Assembly: GCA_963747515.1 (NCBI GenBank)
Contig: CAVVFN010000009.1
Coordinates: forward strand, 234,505-298,504
Direction of reading: 5' to 3'
DNA length: 64,000 nt
DNA from: an uncultured Prolixibacteraceae bacterium
GTDB taxonomy: Bacteria > Bacteroidota > Bacteroidia > Bacteroidales > Prolixibacteraceae
Position 1 is the stretch's first letter. The number at the start of each line of letters is the position of its first letter. The notes under the pieces were generated by a model. It saw nothing but the letters and a program-made list of their open reading frames with translations, made no database searches and was not told the origin of the DNA. Shown one piece after another: positions 48,941-57,607 of the stretch. The position numbers were made by a program, and so were the translations under genes.

Positions 48941-49693
48941 TTAATTGTTGTTTTCTTTTTTATAAATTTCAAAATAATACCTGACAGAAGCCCTGATTTC
49001 ATAATCTGTTGAAGTGTATGGCAGTATGTTTTGTGCATTGAACCAAAGCATAAAGCTATCGGCAGCGGCTTCATTTAATCCGGTAAGTTTCATTACGGTT
49101 TCCTTATTGTAATTTCGTGAATGCATTTCCCAGTTTTGCTGGATAGCCATAGCTTCCCTTACATCGCGCTTTTCCTGCTCATGCCTGCTGAGGTAATACT
49201 GCCAATATGATATGGGATTAAAAAGTGCTGAAAGCAGAGGAGGCTTTTCGTTGAACGCATCTCCCCGCAGTTCAACCGGAATATCTACGGGTTTTCCGGT
49301 ACCAAGATCACCGGCTATATTTGGTTTTTCGCCTTTTACTTCCACTTCCCCGACAGCATAACTTACCGGATTCAGGGTAAAGGTAAGCAGTTCGTATCCC
49401 ATATAATTATGAGGGATGTATATTACTTTCTTCTGATAACCCACCGAAGTAACAATAAGGCTGTCGATATTCAGGACATCGAGGGTAAAATAGCCATCGT
49501 TATTGGTGATGGTGCCGCTGCGGTTTCGGTTGTTGATGATGTTGGCATAAGGTAAGGCCGAACTGTCGCCGGCGCTAATCAGCCTTGCCTTTAACCTGAC
49601 AAGGATGGGATCGACCAGCACAGGATTGGATTGTGCGTAGCTTTTAAAACCCGCATTCAAAATCAGCATACCTAATATAAAAACGAATCTCAT
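48941..49693 (-). CDS. carboxypeptidase-regulatory-like domain protein
   Basis: LPYANI......GTITN.DGYF.L....DSL.VTSVGY; start moved to ATG 49693. Confidence 0.75.
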   Translation of the reverse strand: MRFVFILGMLILNAGFKSYAQSNPVLVDPILVRLKARLISAGDSSALPYANIINNRNRSGTITNNDGYFTLDVLNIDSLIVTSVGYQKKVIYIPHNYMGYELLTFTLNPVSYAVGEVEVKGEKPNIAGDLGTGKPVDIPVELRGDAFNEKPPLLSALFNPISYWQYYLSRHEQEKRDVREAMAIQQNWEMHSRNYNKETVMKLTGLNEAAADSFMLWFNAQNILPYTSTDYEIRASVRYYFEIYKKENNN

Positions 49694-49710
49694 CTTTTGA
49701 ATTTGAAGGT

Positions 49711-49718
49711 CAAAAATA
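49711..49718 (-). promoter_or_regulatory. Bacteroidota -7 promoter element (TATTTTTG)
   Basis: Exact TAnnTTTG 18 nt upstream of ATG 49693. Confidence 0.5.
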
Positions 49719-50028
49719 TGGAAAAGATTGCTTTTCACAGAGAAACATAATTCTTTAACGTGAAATTTAACAAGTTTTAAAAGATTTTTACACAAGGATT
49801 TCCACATTTAACTGCAGGCATAAACCGGGATTTATTTTTTAAACATCTTTTGCCCGGGGAAACATCTTTTTCAAATGAATGCTGTTGCTGCTTCAGCAGG
49901 GGCCCATGGATTCGGCTGATGAAACAGGCTGATGTTCGGAAAAAGAAAACGTTTTGCTGAATGATTCTGCCTATCTGTAAAATGTAGGATTAGATAAACA
50001 AATAGCTGTACCACCTTGTTTTGAGATA

Positions 50029-50934
50029 ATGACCAGATTTCCTGTTATACGTTGGTTCGACAGAAATACCGTGAAGCATTTGCGCTTTCCGTTTTCCTTT
50101 TTTCTGATGCCTGTTTTCCTTTTTGCTTTAAGTCAGGCCCTTTTGGTGAATTGGTTTCATGCCATTTTTGCCTTTTTTATTTTGCATTTTCTGGTGTTTC
50201 CCTCCAGTAACGGATACAACAGTTATCAGGATCGCGATGAAGGCAGCATTGGTGGGTTAAAACATCCGCCCAAAGTTACCCGGCATCTTTTTTATGTTAC
50301 CTTACTTTTCGATATTGCTGCCCTTGTTCTTGCCCTCATCGTTTCACCGCTGTTTTCTCTATTGGTTCTGGTTTTCATAATCGTATCGCGGATGTACAGC
50401 TATCGCGGTATCCGGATAAAGAAATACCCGGTAGCCGGATTTTTGGTTGTTTTTATTTTTCAGGGCGCTTATGTTTATCTTATGACCTTAGTATCGGTAT
50501 CGAACCAGTTTCTGCCCGCAGTTTTAACCCGCAGCAGTCTGATATGCATGAGCATTTCAAGTTTATTTATCGGAAGCATGTATCCACTCACACAGATTTA
50601 CCAGCATGAGGCTGATAAGAGAGATGGCGTAATTAGTATCAGTTATCTTTTGGGATATCGGGGTACTTTTTTATTTTCATTCATTTTATTTACTGCAGCA
50701 TCTGTTTTGTTGTTTTTTTATTTTGGCCGCAGAAACCATTACACAGCTCTTCTTCTTTTTATGGTGCTCATCCTTCCGGTGGTGATTTTCCTCAAGAAGT
50801 GGTCTGATAAAGTACGTCGGAACAGCCGGTTTGCCAATTATGAGAATACCATGAAAGCCAATGTGCTTTCTGCAAGTTCTATGAATTTGTTTTTTATATT
50901 ACTGATTATTAACAACCGGCTAATGTTGTTTTAA
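50029..50934 (+). CDS. UbiA-family prenyltransferase-like membrane protein
   Basis: About 9 TMs; NSYQDRDEG (NDxxDxxxD-like), YS...IRIK, YQHEAD.RDG. Confidence 0.75.
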   Translation: MTRFPVIRWFDRNTVKHLRFPFSFFLMPVFLFALSQALLVNWFHAIFAFFILHFLVFPSSNGYNSYQDRDEGSIGGLKHPPKVTRHLFYVTLLFDIAALVLALIVSPLFSLLVLVFIIVSRMYSYRGIRIKKYPVAGFLVVFIFQGAYVYLMTLVSVSNQFLPAVLTRSSLICMSISSLFIGSMYPLTQIYQHEADKRDGVISISYLLGYRGTFLFSFILFTAASVLLFFYFGRRNHYTALLLFMVLILPVVIFLKKWSDKVRRNSRFANYENTMKANVLSASSMNLFFILLIINNRLMLF

Positions 50935-50935
50935 T

Positions 50936-52036
50936 ATGAGCAGGATCATTTCTACCGGAACGGCAGTGCCAGAATATTCAGCCCCTCAGGAAAACATTCT
51001 GGGTTATATGTGCGGGGCATATAACGATGAAACGGTGTCGCGTAAGCTGCGCATATTGTTTCATTCAAGCGGCATTCGTTCGCGGTATTCGGTAGTGCCC
51101 GATTTTGGTAATCAACAAGTGGATAATCTTTTTTTTGGAAATGGAAAGCCGGATGTGGAAAAGAGAATGGATCTTTTCCGCAAAAATGCTTCTGACCTTG
51201 CTGTTGCTGCAATAAATAACCTTTTCAGTAAACTGGATACAGATATTCAATCCTTTGGAATAACTCACCTGATAACAGTAACCTGTACGGGCATATATTC
51301 CCCCGGACTGGAGACTGAAGTAATGGAAAAGTTGCTACTGCCCACTGATATTTTTCATACCTCAGTGAATTTTATGGGTTGCAATGCTGCTTTTCCGGCA
51401 CAAAAAATTGCCGATTCCTTTACCCGTTCTGATGAGAATGCCCGGGTGCTGGTGGTTTGCCTTGAATTATGTACCATACATTTTCAACCTAAAGATGATA
51501 ACGATAATTTGCTGTCGAATACTATTTTTGGCGATGGGGCTGCTGCATTATTGATGGTATCCGATAAATTGGCAAGACAGCAAAATCTGAAAGGGCTTGA
51601 GGTTAAAGGGTTCTATTCCGGAATGTTGGGTGAAGGTAAGAGTCTGATGGGCTGGAATATAAAGCCGTTAAATTTTGAAATGGTATTAAGTGCGGGTATC
51701 CCCGCTTTTATCGGGCAAAAAATAAATCACTTTATTTCTGAAACCAGCAGGAATTTGAACGTGGCTCCCGGTATGATTGATAAATGGGCAGTTCACCCGG
51801 GAGGACGAAAGATTCTTGACCAGGTTAAAGCGCAACTGGGACTGAATAATGGGGAAATGAATTATTCCTATCAGATTCTAAGGGATTATGGAAATATGTC
51901 GTCTCCTACCATTCTTTTTATCCTGAACCTGATACAGGAGCAGGAATTGAAACACGGAGAGAAAATATTGGCTATTGGATTTGGACCAGGCATCAGTGTG
52001 GATACAGCATTATATCATTATGTGGAAGAAATTTAA
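50936..52036 (+). CDS. type III polyketide synthase
   Basis: FMGCNAA (Cys), LELCTIH, FGDGAAA, WAVHPGG (His), GNMSS (Asn), GFGPG. Confidence 0.93.
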   Translation: MSRIISTGTAVPEYSAPQENILGYMCGAYNDETVSRKLRILFHSSGIRSRYSVVPDFGNQQVDNLFFGNGKPDVEKRMDLFRKNASDLAVAAINNLFSKLDTDIQSFGITHLITVTCTGIYSPGLETEVMEKLLLPTDIFHTSVNFMGCNAAFPAQKIADSFTRSDENARVLVVCLELCTIHFQPKDDNDNLLSNTIFGDGAAALLMVSDKLARQQNLKGLEVKGFYSGMLGEGKSLMGWNIKPLNFEMVLSAGIPAFIGQKINHFISETSRNLNVAPGMIDKWAVHPGGRKILDQVKAQLGLNNGEMNYSYQILRDYGNMSSPTILFILNLIQEQELKHGEKILAIGFGPGISVDTALYHYVEEI

Positions 52037-52763
52037 GCAGCGCTCTGCGCTTGATGAACTGCTTGATTCACCTGATATTCCGGAAGGTATGCTGGTAGAA
52101 AACCTGCGCGAACTTGATTTTCTAAACCGGAATACGGGAGGGCATGCTCTTAGCCTGAAAGGAATTAAAATGTTGCTGAACAATAAACGCAGGTCGTATC
52201 ATATCGCCGATTTAGGTTGTGGCAGTGGTGATACCCTGCGATATGTGGCAAGATGGGCAAGAAAAAATGGATATAAAGTAAAATTAACAGGTGTGGATAT
52301 TAACCCGAATGCCATTCAGTATCTGAAAATGATGAGCACCAGCTTTCCTGAAATAGAGGGTTATGCAGGTGATTACAGGGAGTTTTTAATGCATTCAGCG
52401 GTTGATGTTTTTCATTGTTCCTTGTTTTGCCATCATTTAAACAGTGAAGAGCTTGCAGAACTATTTGGAGACATGAATTCGTCAGCAGGAATAGGTTTTG
52501 TAATCAATGATTTGAAGCGAAGTCCACTGGCCTATTTCGGGGCGAAGATTTTTACAGCTGTCTTTCGGGGCAGCCCCTTGTCAAGGCATGACGGACCTCT
52601 CTCTGTTCTGCGAGGTTTTAAAAAAAAGGAAATTGAATTGTTGTTTAAGCAGGCAGGAGTCAGGCATTACCGGATCTTTAGGAGGCCGTTTTTTCGTTAT
52701 TTAATAGTCGGTAAAAATTCTTCTGTGACGGAAGAGGCAGACTTTCAAAGAAAAATATTATGA
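52020..52763 (+). CDS. class I SAM-dependent methyltransferase
   Basis: IADLGCGSGD motif I, GVDIN, SLFCHH, INDL.RS, D...SV.RGF; start moved to ATG 52020 (overlaps the PKS stop). Confidence 0.85.
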   Translation: MWKKFKQRSALDELLDSPDIPEGMLVENLRELDFLNRNTGGHALSLKGIKMLLNNKRRSYHIADLGCGSGDTLRYVARWARKNGYKVKLTGVDINPNAIQYLKMMSTSFPEIEGYAGDYREFLMHSAVDVFHCSLFCHHLNSEELAELFGDMNSSAGIGFVINDLKRSPLAYFGAKIFTAVFRGSPLSRHDGPLSVLRGFKKKEIELLFKQAGVRHYRIFRRPFFRYLIVGKNSSVTEEADFQRKIL

Positions 52764-54358
52764 AACAGGTTAATGGGAAAATGCCCGAAGTGCTTATTGC
52801 CGGTGCGGGGCCTACAGGGTTAATGATGGCATGTCAGTTGTCACTGTTTAACATTCGTCTGCGTATAATCGATATGAAGGTATCTCCTTCATCCTATTCG
52901 GGGGCAATGGTTATTCATGCCCGGACGATGGAAATCTTTCAGCAAATCGGGCTTGCGGAAAAGATGCTGGAACAGGGTACTGTAGTCAACGGACTTTCTG
53001 TTTATTTTAATGGGAAGAAGTCAGGCCACCTGAATCTAAAAGGAACAGGCAGCTCATTGTCAAAATTTCCTTTCATGCTGCTGCTGGAACAGTCAAAAAC
53101 TGAAGGTTTGCTCATTGAATTTCTGCGGCAGAAAGGCATCGGGGTTGAATGGGATACTGAACTTGTATCAATGGAACAACAAGAACAAGGAGTGGAGGCT
53201 GAACTCATCCTGCCTGTTGGTGACAGGGAAAAGGTAAAGGCAGAATATCTTGTAGCAGCCGATGGAGGCAAGAGTACCATCCGGTCGCTGCTAAAAATTC
53301 CTTTTGAAGGGAAAACGCATCATTCTGCTTTATCTGTTATGGAATGTGATAGCGATATAATCTCGCCTTCCAATGAACTTCTGTTTTCCTTTTCAAGGCA
53401 GGCAACTACCGGTTTTTTTCCCCTCTCCAAAGGAAACTGGAGGATTGATGCTGCTTTTCAGAGAATAAGGACAGGCAGCGGTTTATCGTTTAATGCGGTT
53501 CAGAAGAATTTTAACCGGAATACCAGGCTGAACGCCAATGTTCGTAATCCGGAGTGGTTTACCGTATTTCATTCACATGGGAAGTATGCACGCTTTTATA
53601 GAATTAACAGGTGCTTTCTTGCAGGTGATGCGGCCCATTTATTTACTCCGGTTGGCGGACAGGGGATGAATACCGGGTTGCAGGATGCACATAACCTGGC
53701 CTGGAAAATGGCAATGGTAATTAAGGGGAAGATACTGCCTGAAACTCTGGATACCTATCAGACGGAACGAAAACCTGTTGCCATCAGAACATGCCGTTCC
53801 TCCGACAGGTTTTTTAAGCTGGCAGCTTCAGGAGGCTTAGTTTACAAATTATTCAGAAGTTATCTTCTTGCTCCTTTATTGGGTGTATTTTTTAAGTTAA
53901 TGAAAGTGAAACCGATTTCTGAATCTATTTTTAAAAGAATTTCCGGAACAGGGATTTCTTATCCGGAGAATTTTCTGAATTTCGATGGATCTGAAAATAT
54001 ACTTGCAACTGCTCCCCGTCCGGGTGAGCGGATTCCTTATTTCAAATATGTCGATACTGATGGAAATGAGGTTTCAATTGATGATAAGCTGAGCAGTGAC
54101 CGTTTTCACCTGTTAATTTTTGAAGGGAACAATTCCAATAAAAAAGAACTTCAGAAAGCGGTAAAGGAATTCCGGAATACAGTATCAACTCATATTATTT
54201 CTTTAAATCAGGGTTCGGGTGATTTGTATGTTAAGTTTGGAATTAAATCACAGGGATGGTATTTGATAAGGCCTGATCTTTATATTACCTGCCGGTCGGA
54301 TGAATCGGGTGCAGAACATTTAAAAGCCTGCTTGCATCTGCTGTTTAAAATTAAATAA
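52760..54358 (+). CDS. FAD-dependent monooxygenase (PheA/TfdB-like aromatic hydroxylase)
   Basis: GAGPTG, ADGG.S..R, LAGDAAH...P.GGQGMNTGLQDAHNLAWK, Y..ER.P, C-terminal L.RPD.Y. Confidence 0.88.
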   Translation: MKQVNGKMPEVLIAGAGPTGLMMACQLSLFNIRLRIIDMKVSPSSYSGAMVIHARTMEIFQQIGLAEKMLEQGTVVNGLSVYFNGKKSGHLNLKGTGSSLSKFPFMLLLEQSKTEGLLIEFLRQKGIGVEWDTELVSMEQQEQGVEAELILPVGDREKVKAEYLVAADGGKSTIRSLLKIPFEGKTHHSALSVMECDSDIISPSNELLFSFSRQATTGFFPLSKGNWRIDAAFQRIRTGSGLSFNAVQKNFNRNTRLNANVRNPEWFTVFHSHGKYARFYRINRCFLAGDAAHLFTPVGGQGMNTGLQDAHNLAWKMAMVIKGKILPETLDTYQTERKPVAIRTCRSSDRFFKLAASGGLVYKLFRSYLLAPLLGVFFKLMKVKPISESIFKRISGTGISYPENFLNFDGSENILATAPRPGERIPYFKYVDTDGNEVSIDDKLSSDRFHLLIFEGNNSNKKELQKAVKEFRNTVSTHIISLNQGSGDLYVKFGIKSQGWYLIRPDLYITCRSDESGAEHLKACLHLLFKIK

Positions 54359-54359
54359 A

Positions 54360-54821
54360 ATGAATCAAACATCAAAACATGAAAAGAGATTTCAGTTCTG
54401 GCAGAAATGGCTTTTTTACAGCAGTATTCTGTTTGCCTTATTTGGGGTGGTATTGGCTTTATTTGGTAACAACCCCCTTTTCAAGCCTTATCACAGAATG
54501 CTTGCCCTGATTTTTTTTGATAAGGAAGCATTTCCGGAAAATACGCAGGAACTCTATACTTTCATTATGGGGCCTGTGGGTGCAAACATTGCCGGATTCT
54601 ATCTTTTGCTGGTCTATATTGCCGGGTATCCTTTTAAACGGAAGGAGCGATGGGCACGTTCGGCAATCATTGTTTCATTTGCCTCCTGGTTTATAATAGA
54701 TGCCATTGTTTCAGTATATTATGGTGTGCTGTTCCAGGTACTGGTATTGCATCTGCTTGTTTCTGTACCTCAAAAAGCTTTACCACTAATTTTCACATGG
54801 AAGGAATTTGATCTGAAATAA
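54360..54821 (+). CDS. four-TM hypothetical membrane protein
   Basis: 1 nt after the monooxygenase stop; four hydrophobic segments; WF..D...S. Confidence 0.65.
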   Translation: MNQTSKHEKRFQFWQKWLFYSSILFALFGVVLALFGNNPLFKPYHRMLALIFFDKEAFPENTQELYTFIMGPVGANIAGFYLLLVYIAGYPFKRKERWARSAIIVSFASWFIIDAIVSVYYGVLFQVLVLHLLVSVPQKALPLIFTWKEFDLK

Positions 54822-54937
54822 TATATTGGTAATTTCATAATTCTCAGGCGATGCATGAATAAGTAGGTCAAAAGAAGGGCATTTTTTAAAGAGTAACATC
54901 CATTAAACTTCTATGGGGCAGGGAAAGATTCAGTTGA

Positions 54938-54968
54938 TTCACCGGATGATAAAAAATCATCCGGTGAA
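54938..54968. terminator. 13-bp perfect hairpin between convergent genes
   Basis: TTCACCGGATGAT-AAAAA-ATCATCCGGTGAA, 11 nt past the valS stop. Confidence 0.65.
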
Positions 54969-54979
54969 AAGTTTCAGGT

Positions 54980-57607
54980 TTATTTTATTGAAGAGATTCT
55001 TTCCTCCAGTACTTTAATTTTAGCCTCCGCATCGGCTTGTTTTGCTTTTTCTTTAGCTACTACTGTTTCCGGGGCGCTGTTGACAAACCGTTCATTGCCC
55101 AGTTTTTTGAGAACTGAGTTTAAGAAACCCTTTGTATAATTCAGTTCTTCTTCCAGCTTTCTCCGCTCTTCTTTCACGTCAATAAAATCTTCGAGAGGAA
55201 TATAGAAATTGGTTGATTTTACCCGGAAGGATGCTGCTCCCTGTACCTCATCGGAAACCGTTTCGAGTGCAGAAAGATTAGCCAGTTTAATTACTACACT
55301 ATTGAAAGCTTTTTCGTAACCTTTATCTCCCTGCTGAACATTCAGCACCAGGGAATCCTTATTTGGAATACTTTTATCGGTTCTAATTTTACGGATTCCC
55401 GAAACGGCTTCCTTTACATTTTCAAAAGAGGCTAATAAATCTTTATCATACGGATTAATTTTTGGCATCTGACTGATCATGATGCTTTCTCCCTCAATCC
55501 GGGTTTTAAGCAACTGCCATATTTCTTCGGTGATGAACGGCATAAAAGGGTGCATCAGACGCAGGAGTTGGTCGAACAATTCCACCACTTCAGCATAAGT
55601 TTTAACATCGATAGGCTGTTGGTACGGAGGTTTTACTATCTCCAGCAGCCAGCCTGAGAATTCATCACGAACGGTAGTATAAATGGTCATTAATGCCTCT
55701 GAAATGCGGAACTGATTGAACTGTGAATCCAATAGCTCAACCACCTCATTTAACTTGTTGGAAAACCAGTTAACAGCCAGTTTTGAATGCTCCGGCTGTT
55801 CGGTTTCAGAAGAAACTTCCCAATTTTTCACCAGACGGAATGCATTCCAGATTTTTGTAGCAAATCCTGCACCCTGCTGTGGCAGGCTTTCATCGAAAAG
55901 CAGATCCCCTCCTGCAGGTGAACACAGCAACATGCCGACACGCACTCCATCGGCACCATATTTGGAAATTAAATCAAGCGGGTCGGGTGAATTGCCCAAT
56001 GATTTTGACATCTTTCTGCGTTGGGCATCACGCACCATACCTGTAAAATACACGTTTTTAAATGGATATTGATTTTCGTACTCATATCCGGCAATAATCA
56101 TACGCGCCACCCAAAAGAAAATAATATCGGGTGCAGTTACCAAATCTGAGGTGGGATAATAATATGCCAGTTCTTTATTCCCGGGATTGCGAATGCCGTC
56201 GAATACTGAAATTGGCCATAGCCAGCTTGAGAACCAGGTATCCAATACATCTTCATCCTGTATCAGGTCAGCCAGAGTAAGGTTACTGTTGCCGGTTTTC
56301 TCCCTTGCAATATTTAATGCCGTTTCGGCCGATTGGGCACAAACAAAGTCACCACCGGGCAGGTAGTAAACAGGAATCTGATGGCCCCACCATAACTGAC
56401 GGCTGATACACCAGTCCTTTATATTGCCCGTCCAGTGGCGGTAAATATTTTTAAATTTTGGCGGATGAAACTGAATGGTACCGTTCATTACGTTATCCAG
56501 TGCTGGCTTTACCAGATCTTCCATTTTCAGGAACCACTGCACTGAAAGTTTGGGTTCAATGGCAACATTGGTGCGTTCCGAGAAACCCACTTTATTGGTA
56601 TAATCTTCAATGTGGTCAATATTCCCTGCTTTTTCCAGTTCCGGAATGATTTTTTCCCGCACAACAAACCGGTCTTCTCCAATGAACATTTCGGCAGCTT
56701 TACTAAGTGTTCCGTCGTCATTGAATATATCAATGGAAGGAAGATTATGGCGTAACCCGATTTCATAATCGTTTATATCGTGGGCAGGGGTGATTTTCAG
56801 GCACCCTGTTCCAAAATCCATATCCACATAGCCGTCTTCAATTATTGGAATGGAACGATTGATAAGCGGCACCAGTACATGTTTCCCTTTCAGGTGAGTG
56901 AACCTTTTGTCGGCAGGATTTACACAAACAGCAGTATCGCCCAGAATGGTTTCAGGACGGGTGGTAGCGATGGTAATATATCCTTTTTCACCATCCAGTT
57001 TGTATTTCAGGTAGTACAGTTTTGATTTTACTTCCCTGTAATTTACCTCCTCGTCGGAAAGGGCGGTTTTGGCTGCCGGATCCCAGTTTACCATACGTAC
57101 TCCCCGGTAAATAAACCCTTTTTTGTATAAATCAACAAATATGCGGATGACCGATTCACTGCGGGTTTCATCCATGGTAAATGCAGTGCGATCCCAATCG
57201 CATGAAGCACCCAGCTTTTTTAACTGTTCCAGGATAATTCCCCCATGCTTATGGGTCCAGTCCCAGGCATGTTCCAGAAATTCTTCCCTGCTCAGGTCAT
57301 ATTTGTCGATTCCTTCTGCCCGTAATTTATTTACTACCTTCGCTTCAGTGGCAATGGATGCATGGTCGGTACCGGGTACCCAGCAGGCATTTTTGCCGTT
57401 CATACGTGCCCTGCGAATCAGAATATCCTGAATGGTATTATTGAGCATGTGCCCCATATGCAACACACCCGTTACATTGGGAGGAGGAATAACGATTGTA
57501 TAAGCCTCGCGTTCATCGGGTTCTGAGTGGAAAAATTTATGTTGCATCCAGAACTGGTACCATTTTTCTTCTACTTCTGCCGCGATGTATTTGCTCGGAA
57601 TTTCCAT
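54980..57607 (-). CDS. valS: valine--tRNA ligase
   Basis: [38 protein letters not shown]-terminal coiled coil. Confidence 0.97.

Follow-up and report, generated by a model that had tools for sequence, protein, structure and literature searches.

A translationally coupled UbiA-type III polyketide synthase operon of Mariniphaga as a candidate source of a prenylated phenolic membrane lipid

Here, we analysed a 64,000-nt stretch of DNA (the window, whose numbering is used throughout) from contig CAVVFN010000009.1 of an uncultured Prolixibacteraceae bacterium of the genus Mariniphaga, and describe an operon on its plus strand (50029-54821) which is predicted to direct the synthesis of a prenylated phenolic membrane lipid, namely an alkyl-prenyl-methoxy-hydroquinone or quinone. 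We assign this reading a probability of about 0.6. The operon encodes a UbiA-family prenyltransferase (UbiA), a type III polyketide synthase (PKS), a class-I S-adenosylmethionine-dependent methyltransferase (MT), a flavoprotein aromatic-ring hydroxylase (FMO) and a small helical membrane protein (MP). The evidence consists of the genes present and their coupling, the fold and family of the first four proteins, the specificity-determining residues of the PKS, the conservation in Bacteroidota of the cassette to which they belong, and a single replacement of the flavoprotein within that cassette.

The preliminary description of this DNA had proposed five translationally coupled genes with 1-nt gaps or overlaps, and the junctions read from the sequence bear this out. 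Five open reading frames, all on the plus strand, were confirmed (Table 1), and they are joined by -17, -4 or +1 nt. The UbiA gene stops with TAA at 50932-50934, one base before the PKS ATG at 50936, and the hydroxylase gene stops at 54356-54358, again one base before the MP ATG at 54360. The MT and FMO genes share the ATGA at 52760-52763, a 4-nt overlap. The MT frame is open from a TTG at 51975, and the alignments of homologues mostly start at residue 16 or 20 of this TTG frame. Based on these alignment starts and the candidate start codons, ATG 52020 is the probable start, which gives a 17-nt overlap with the PKS gene (stop codon 52034-52036). The GC content of the operon is continuous with its flanks, with no break.

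Conservation of this gene order was examined by a distribution scan using one genome per species and an alignment of UbiA as query, from which 80 loci were kept for comparison. At least 577 species-level genomes of Bacteroidota were found to hold the UbiA-PKS-MT core in this order. When the phylum was sampled evenly, 35 of 401 genomes (approximately 9%) and 26 of 179 genera had the cassette. All 80 kept loci are of Bacteroidota type (Bacteroidales, Chitinophagales, Saprospirales, Sphingobacteriales and Lentimicrobium), and their UbiA, PKS and MT proteins are orthologous, with 34-87% identity. Because the UbiA-PKS-MT order recurs in essentially all of the 80 loci with enough sequence, the arrangement is far beyond chance, and chance adjacency of UbiA and PKS is ruled out by the same order being kept across several taxonomic orders. 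The order holds wherever the sequence reaches, with one exception that lacks the PKS. This locus (L042, 629-3883), in a metagenome-assembled genome (MAG) labelled Chitinophagaceae, has UbiA, MT and a 532-aa FMO, with approximately 160 bp between UbiA and MT. Two other contigs, labelled Bifidobacteriaceae (L084) and Spirochaetia (L056), carry cassettes of Bacteroidota type which nest inside Bacteroidota clades; these contigs are probably mis-binned.

The residues of the PKS are informative about both its starter and its ring type. Among the solved structures nearest to it, 7cb3 is the best match, and PKS18 and Steely1, both of which we take to accept long-chain acyl starters, are also present. 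The Cys-His-Asn triad, previously noticed as intact, is indeed complete, with Cys149, His287 and Asn320 aligned with Cys175, His313 and Asn346 of PKS18. In PKS18, Thr144, Cys205 and Ala209 set the volume of the acyl tunnel, and the long-chain enzymes BpsA and CepA carry Thr, Cys and Phe at these sites (PMC7064976). The same pattern is found here (T118, C179 and F183), and it is conserved in 73 cassette PKSs, in which the sole departures are the conservative changes C179S and F183Y, found in a single sequence each. The formation of a resorcinol rather than a pyrone is determined by a Trp at the ArsB-Trp281 site, which is Gly284 in ArsC and Leu266 in PKS18 (PMC7064976, PMC6274091). Trp240 occupies this site and is present without exception in the cassette PKSs (73 of 73); two gapless alignments, with 7cb3 and with 4b0n, the latter with a matching IKP motif, place it there. 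From the Thr/Cys/Phe tunnel pattern and the invariant Trp240, we conclude that the enzyme is a predicted long-chain alkylresorcinol synthase.

The enzyme classes assigned in the preliminary description, including a PheA/TfdB-type hydroxylase of roughly 530 aa, were also recovered by Pfam and NCBIfam. UbiA matches PF01040 at 6.6e-19 (68.6 bits, cut-off 34.2), and its AlphaFold2 (AF2) model has a pLDDT of 92.5. The best Foldseek matches of this model are DGGGP synthase, AfUbiA, ApUbiA and UBIAD1 (probability 1.0, TM 0.57-0.69), and the protein is thus modelled with the nine-helix UbiA fold, as a member of this superfamily. It is the best-conserved protein of the cassette (median identity 58%), and among its acidic residues, N64-x3-D68-x-D70 and D196 are invariant and D199 is nearly so (D196-x2-D199). 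The MT matches Methyltransf_25/31/11, is PRK06202-like at 4.5e-38, and carries a DLGCGSGD motif. The FMO matches FAD_binding_3 (1.1e-72), Phe_hydrox_dim, Rng_hyd_C (31.8 bits, cut-off 27.5) and PRK06184 (2e-86). Its nearest solved structures are rifampin monooxygenase (5.7e-50), then OxyS, PgaE and MtmOIV-type oxygenases and phenol hydroxylases, and the alignment with rifampin monooxygenase and other polyketide ring oxygenases spans 337 residues. The motifs GAGPTG, DGGKS and GDAAH...GGQG (GDAAHLFTPVGGQGMN) align with those of rifampin monooxygenase, so that the GxGxxG, DG and GD fingerprints are kept. By these matches, it is classed as a group-A hydroxylase of the PheA/TfdB, PgaE and Rox type.

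Table 1. Features of the operon, its borders and the related upstream gene.
Feature	Coordinates	Strand	Basis
UbiA-family intramembrane prenyltransferase (UbiA), 301 aa, divergent subfamily	50029..50934	+	PF01040, predicted fold
Type III polyketide synthase (PKS), 366 aa, predicted long-chain alkylresorcinol synthase	50936..52036	+	Chal_sti_synt_N, Chal_sti_synt_C, triad
Class-I S-adenosylmethionine-dependent methyltransferase (MT), 247 aa from probable start	52020..52763	+	Methyltransf_25/31/11
Group-A flavoprotein aromatic-ring hydroxylase (FMO), 532 aa, C-terminal thioredoxin-like domain; fourth slot of the cassette	52760..54358	+	FAD_binding_3, Phe_hydrox_dim, Rng_hyd_C
Helical membrane protein (MP), 153 aa, no family; recurrent accessory of the cassette	54360..54821	+	Homologue loci, AF2 model
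3' remnant of u145, then conserved block at 49994-50028	49911..50028	+	Alignment with G002 region
Perfect 11-bp-stem hairpin between convergent MP and valS	54940..54966	.	Sequence reading, fold energy
u145 gene	L012 4826-5263; L013 4904-5335; L014 8316-8744 (-); L015 8443-8868 (-)		Same-genus relatives

Using these assignments, a pathway can be proposed. First, the PKS would be primed with a long-chain fatty acyl thioester and, after extension with three malonyl units and aldol cyclisation, would release a 5-alkylresorcinol. Second, the 532-aa flavoprotein, using O2 and NAD(P)H, would put a third oxygen on the ring. Third, the MT would methylate the ring, at O or C. Fourth, UbiA would move a prenyl group from a prenyl diphosphate onto the ring or a ring oxygen. 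The order and the regiochemistry of these steps are given here as a proposal, in which the alkyl-prenyl-methoxy-hydroquinone or quinone lipid would be kept in the membrane and MP would be an optional helper. That the UbiA gene pointed to a prenylated phenolic lipid or quinone was suggested at the outset, and the suggestion is reasonable.

The fourth slot of the cassette is occupied by one of two flavoproteins. The 532-aa hydroxylase is found in 33 loci and a 378-aa protein, which resembles geranylgeranyl reductase and QhpG, in 36, and the two never occur together. They are unrelated in length and family. In a maximum-likelihood tree of concatenated UbiA, PKS and MT with 68 typed loci, the two cassette types lie on opposite sides of one branch, with a Shimodaira-Hasegawa-like approximate likelihood-ratio test value (SH-aLRT) of 98 on both sides, and one switch suffices. 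Of the 68 typed loci, 32 form a clade centred on Bacteroidales that shares the 532-aa type, and no homologue of the 378-aa flavoprotein was found in the whole genome to which the window belongs. Since one branch splits the types and the genome holds no 378-aa copy, the simplest reading of the sequences is a single non-orthologous replacement of the flavoenzyme in the Bacteroidales-centred lineage. The examined PKS cavity positions are almost identical in both types, and we therefore infer that both would build one scaffold, on which the two fourth-slot enzymes would act as the same substrate; more tentatively, both enzymes may carry out the same reaction, ring hydroxylation. Two neighbours were seen with the 378-aa type. 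A 262-aa short-chain dehydrogenase/reductase (SDR) follows the 378-aa flavoprotein in 11 common-type loci (L040, L043 and L058, and RadA-linked loci) and never occurs in the 532-aa type, and radA lies directly upstream of the cassette in nine 378-aa-type loci (L039, L053, L054, L060, L061, L062, L064, L066 and L070). In the los region of Micromonospora endolithica, radA is likewise found upstream of the UbiA gene, two genes away (PMC7587189), a linkage that may be due to chance or may be old.

Within the genus, the operon is a dispensable and vertically inherited accessory which has been lost repeatedly. It is carried by 7 of the 22 genomes of Mariniphaga. It is flanked by a conserved 288-aa gene and valS, and six other genomes of the genus have it at the same site. 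In G015 and G004 the site is empty, with the flanking genes 136-146 bp apart. The accessory status follows from these seven carriers at one site, together with the sites that are empty or otherwise filled. In the operon-less loci L102, L103, L105 and L107, 1-4 kb of unrelated sequence lies between the 288-aa gene and valS, and the spot seems prone to gene turnover. A recent horizontal or plasmid arrival of the operon was rejected, as no homologue of UbiA was found among 72,556 plasmids, no GC break is present, and synteny is kept within the genus. A second UbiA-PKS-MT-FMO copy was seen in one Mariniphaga MAG (L016/L024, on the 8262-bp contig C3 of G011). On the core tree it groups with Bacteroidales MAGs (L029) and not with the syntenic Mariniphaga copies, which points to a horizontal acquisition or a binning error.

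Several points weigh against the proposed alkyl-prenyl-methoxy-(hydro)quinone. The product class is read here from sequence alone, and the likeness to the characterised agq cluster discussed below is one of architecture. In the PKS, the register of Trp240 relative to PKS18 Leu266 varies by two residues among three HMMER alignments, and the PKS18 alignment itself sets Met238 opposite Leu266 through compensating gaps. UbiA is very divergent in sequence, as a profile search of the PDB with it matched only ApUbiA (E = 0.024). The canonical Asp-rich motifs of the family are N-D-x2-D-x3-D and D-x3-D, and although acidic pairs are present here, neither the first motif, N-x3-D-x-D, nor the second, D196-x2-D199, has the canonical spacing. 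Owing to this motif and this divergence, the prenyl donor, the acceptor atom and the chain length are not readable from the sequence. Finally, the best family of the 378-aa flavoprotein is geranylgeranyl reductase, and a prenyl reductase in the fourth slot could mean that the cassette types make different products.

This last point leads to the alternative that survives best, although we consider it unlikely. Here, the two cassette types would not be equivalent: the common-type 378-aa enzyme would saturate the prenyl chain and add no third ring oxygen, and the Bacteroidales type, having lost the reductase and gained a ring hydroxylase, would give a product that is more oxidised, forms a quinone and has its prenyl group left unsaturated. 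In NCBIfam, the 378-aa protein matches the geranylgeranyl reductase superfamily best (99 and 93 bits, under the cut-off of 158.8), with further matches to BchP/ChlP, DGGGPL reductase and MenJ, and its difference from the hydroxylase in length and family fits this alternative as well. In addition, the agq product bears a reduced prenyl group, dihydrogeranyl (PMC3569393). However, the 378-aa protein also matches the flavin monooxygenases QhpG, LodB, GoxB and UbiH, and its matches among solved structures include flavin halogenases as well as a polyprenylphenol hydroxylase. The strict mutual exclusion in the slot and the unchanged PKS cavity fit a like-for-like replacement.

A very improbable alternative is that the PKS makes a small aromatic head, phloroglucinol- or orsellinate-like, from short starters, to which UbiA adds a long polyprenyl tail, giving a chorismate-independent second respiratory quinone beside menaquinone. 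The second acidic motif of UbiA resembles that of 4-hydroxybenzoate polyprenyltransferases, the only PDB profile match of UbiA is ApUbiA, and a PKS, an MT, a hydroxylase and a prenyltransferase formally make up a ubiquinone-like pathway. The top NCBIfam match of the PKS is also a small-ring enzyme, DpgA, but at 162 bits it is far under the cut-off of 425. However, the PKS has the BpsA/CepA tunnel pattern and the resorcinol Trp (PMC7064976), and presence in 7 of 22 genomes of the genus, two clean empty sites and a frequency of approximately 9% in the phylum are unlike a core respiratory cofactor. Least probable of all is an alkylpyrone product with tailoring enzymes acting on a pyrone lipid: alkylpyrones are the products of PKS18, BpsA and ArsC, each of them either a relative or an enzyme with the tunnel pattern (PMC7064976, PMC6274091), and the Met238 register agrees with this, but the gapless 7cb3 and 4b0n alignments set the invariant Trp240 at the resorcinol site, a ring hydroxylase and a phenol-type prenyltransferase chemically fit a resorcinol better, and the characterised PKS/MT/flavoprotein operons srs, pkq, hid and agq all proceed via resorcinols (PMC9927152, PMC10896814).

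The proposed prenylated alkylresorcinol pathway is accompanied by two small membrane proteins. MP has no match in Pfam or NCBIfam, with Pfam searched even at E up to 10. Its AF2 model (pLDDT 80) is a bundle of five helices without a structural relative (best fold match at E = 1.3), and no conserved His or Cys hinting at a metal site and no obvious catalytic residues were found in it. A role as a recognisable enzyme was accordingly rejected on these three grounds: Pfam, fold and His/Cys conservation. Homologues of MP form only 81 clusters, and all those with a taxon name are from Bacteroidota. MP adjoins or sits within the cassette in 11 of the 80 loci, plus contigs L100 and L101; in these, its place is behind the hydroxylase, between the MT gene and that of the 378-aa flavoprotein, or next to the cassette. 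The only homologue examined that is away from a cassette is in Pontibacter sp. 172403-2 (L099, 7001-7459). Its neighbours are DUF3347, Csp, HMA-type P-ATPase and CusB-like genes, and judging from these the neighbourhood looks like one of copper or metal resistance.

The second protein, u145, is a membrane protein of approximately 145 aa without a Pfam family, and G008, G006, G010 and G003 have an intact gene for it immediately upstream of UbiA. In G002 it is visible as far as the contig reaches, and 49911-50028 of the window aligns with the last ~118 nt of that region. The remnant in the window is interrupted by in-frame stops, and u145 is thus a sixth gene that has been lost here, leaving its 3' remnant. 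Five genes are therefore what this genome holds, as first described, but this number is a local state, with the sixth gene lying upstream in five close relatives. Cassette loci from outside the genus showed no homologue of u145.

At the upstream border, the block ATAAACAAATAG-N11-CTTGTTTTGAGATA at 49994-50028, which ends at the UbiA ATG, is invariant across five genomes. Promoter and terminator scans gave matches no more numerous than in shuffled sequence, and no exact TAnnTTTG is present on the plus strand of the spacer upstream of the operon; for these two reasons, we do not claim a promoter. Within the block, TTGTTTTG has one mismatch to the Bacteroidota -7 motif TAnnTTTG and lies 6 nt before the UbiA start. 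As a promoter element, it would leave the mRNA with a very short leader or none at all. At the downstream border, the hairpin at 54940-54966 has an extended fold energy of -21.4 kcal/mol and is not among the matches of the consensus terminator scan. It is probably a bidirectional terminator and the 3' end of the operon. An Rfam scan of 49600-55100 found no regulatory RNA, and its sole match is a chance one (E = 0.72).

The genome holds a single type III PKS and two further UbiA-family genes, one of which adjoins a haem-copper oxidase gene. It encodes three homologues of haem-copper oxidase subunit I as well as cytochrome bd, and an O2-dependent flavoenzyme is thus unremarkable in this host. 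The earlier suggestion of a product made at oxic-anoxic transitions is not supported for this reason, and nothing in the data ties the operon to such transitions.

The findings have several implications. First, the cassette is among the most widespread small biosynthetic operons of Bacteroidota, a phylum from which few natural products have been characterised so far. Using the PKS determinants, the two cassette forms that differ by one flavoenzyme, and the cultured carriers of the common cassette (Flavisolibacter longurius BT320 and Paraflavitalea sp. CAU 1676), its chemistry becomes more predictable. Second, the flavoenzyme exchange is a clean natural case of the displacement of one enzyme family by another in a fixed pathway slot. 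Third, a new family of prenylated phenolic lipids, a bacterial counterpart of the plant chemistry that combines alkylresorcinols with UbiA enzymes, may be gained, as well as a divergent subfamily of UbiA prenyltransferases with an unusual acidic motif. New in this work are the single flavoenzyme replacement by which a Bacteroidales form of the cassette is defined, the presence of the published alkylresorcinol determinants in the PKS, the two small orphan membrane proteins whose occurrence varies together with that of the operon, and the accessory status within the genus. A wider idea, which we regard as quite doubtful, is that the polyketide-derived alkyl-prenyl-methoxy-(hydro)quinone might serve in membranes across the phylum as an accessory second redox carrier or antioxidant beside menaquinone, with ring hydroxylation so important that in a Bacteroidales lineage one flavoenzyme was displaced by an unrelated one while the remainder of the pathway stayed intact, and with MP and u145 as dedicated lipid handlers, either as a scaffold of a membrane-bound PKS-prenyltransferase complex or as a flippase. 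Bacteroidota are known as menaquinone-only organisms.

Compared with known systems, the operon belongs to an established kind of pathway, of which it is an orphan variant. The initial analogy with the SrsABC type of Streptomyces, and with pkq, holds: srsABC of Streptomyces griseus and pkqABC of Mycobacterium smegmatis convert an alkylresorcinol into an alkyl-methoxy-benzoquinone, the so-called polyketide quinones (PMC9927152), and likewise have a type III PKS, an MT and a flavoprotein hydroxylase in one operon. However, they have no prenyltransferase, whereas UbiA in the window is coupled to the PKS by a 1-nt gap and conserved with it, and the MT of the window differs from theirs in being a soluble class-I Rossmann enzyme. 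The hidABC cluster of Cyanobium (hierridins) and the planctomycete MT-oxidoreductase-PKS operon also combine an MT, an FAD oxidoreductase and an alkylresorcinol-forming PKS (PMC10896814, PMC8086630), but in the order MT-FAD-PKS and without UbiA, except that one cyanobacterial cluster has a prenyltransferase in addition (PMC8086630). BpsA of Bacillus subtilis and CepA of 'Entotheonella' share the Thr/Cys/Phe tunnel sites, and CepA also the Trp at the ArsB-Trp281 site (PMC7064976), but theirs are two-gene PKS/MT clusters without a hydroxylase or prenyltransferase. Within the phylum, the common Bacteroidota cassette has orthologous UbiA, PKS and MT in the order of the window and a near-identical PKS cavity, and it differs in having the 378-aa flavoprotein in place of the 532-aa hydroxylase, along with SDR and RadA neighbours that are absent here.

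It had been stated at first that no product was assigned to this architecture in Bacteroidota. In our literature search, no paper tying the UbiA-PKS-MT-hydroxylase architecture to a product in this phylum was found, and to this extent the statement stands, but the four-enzyme set has a precedent in agqABCD and the cassette itself is common in the phylum. Activities have reportedly been assigned to AgqB, AgqC and AgqD by Awakawa et al. (2011, ChemBioChem 12:439). The Micromonospora los region, which is related to agq, has the order UbiA-MT-'acyl-CoA dehydrogenase'-PKS (PMC7587189), and its flavoenzyme appears to belong to yet another family. The agq cluster is a reference cluster in antiSMASH KnownClusterBlast (PMC8698034), and agqABCD of Actinoplanes missouriensis yields 6-alkyl-4-O-dihydrogeranyl-2-methoxyhydroquinones (PMC3569393, PMC10896814, PMC7692728). 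Compared by architecture, both clusters combine an alkylresorcinol-type PKS, a monooxygenase, an MT and a UbiA-like membrane prenyltransferase. The operon described here is found in another phylum, has another gene order and includes the extra MP, and by this architectural comparison agqABCD is its closest characterised system.

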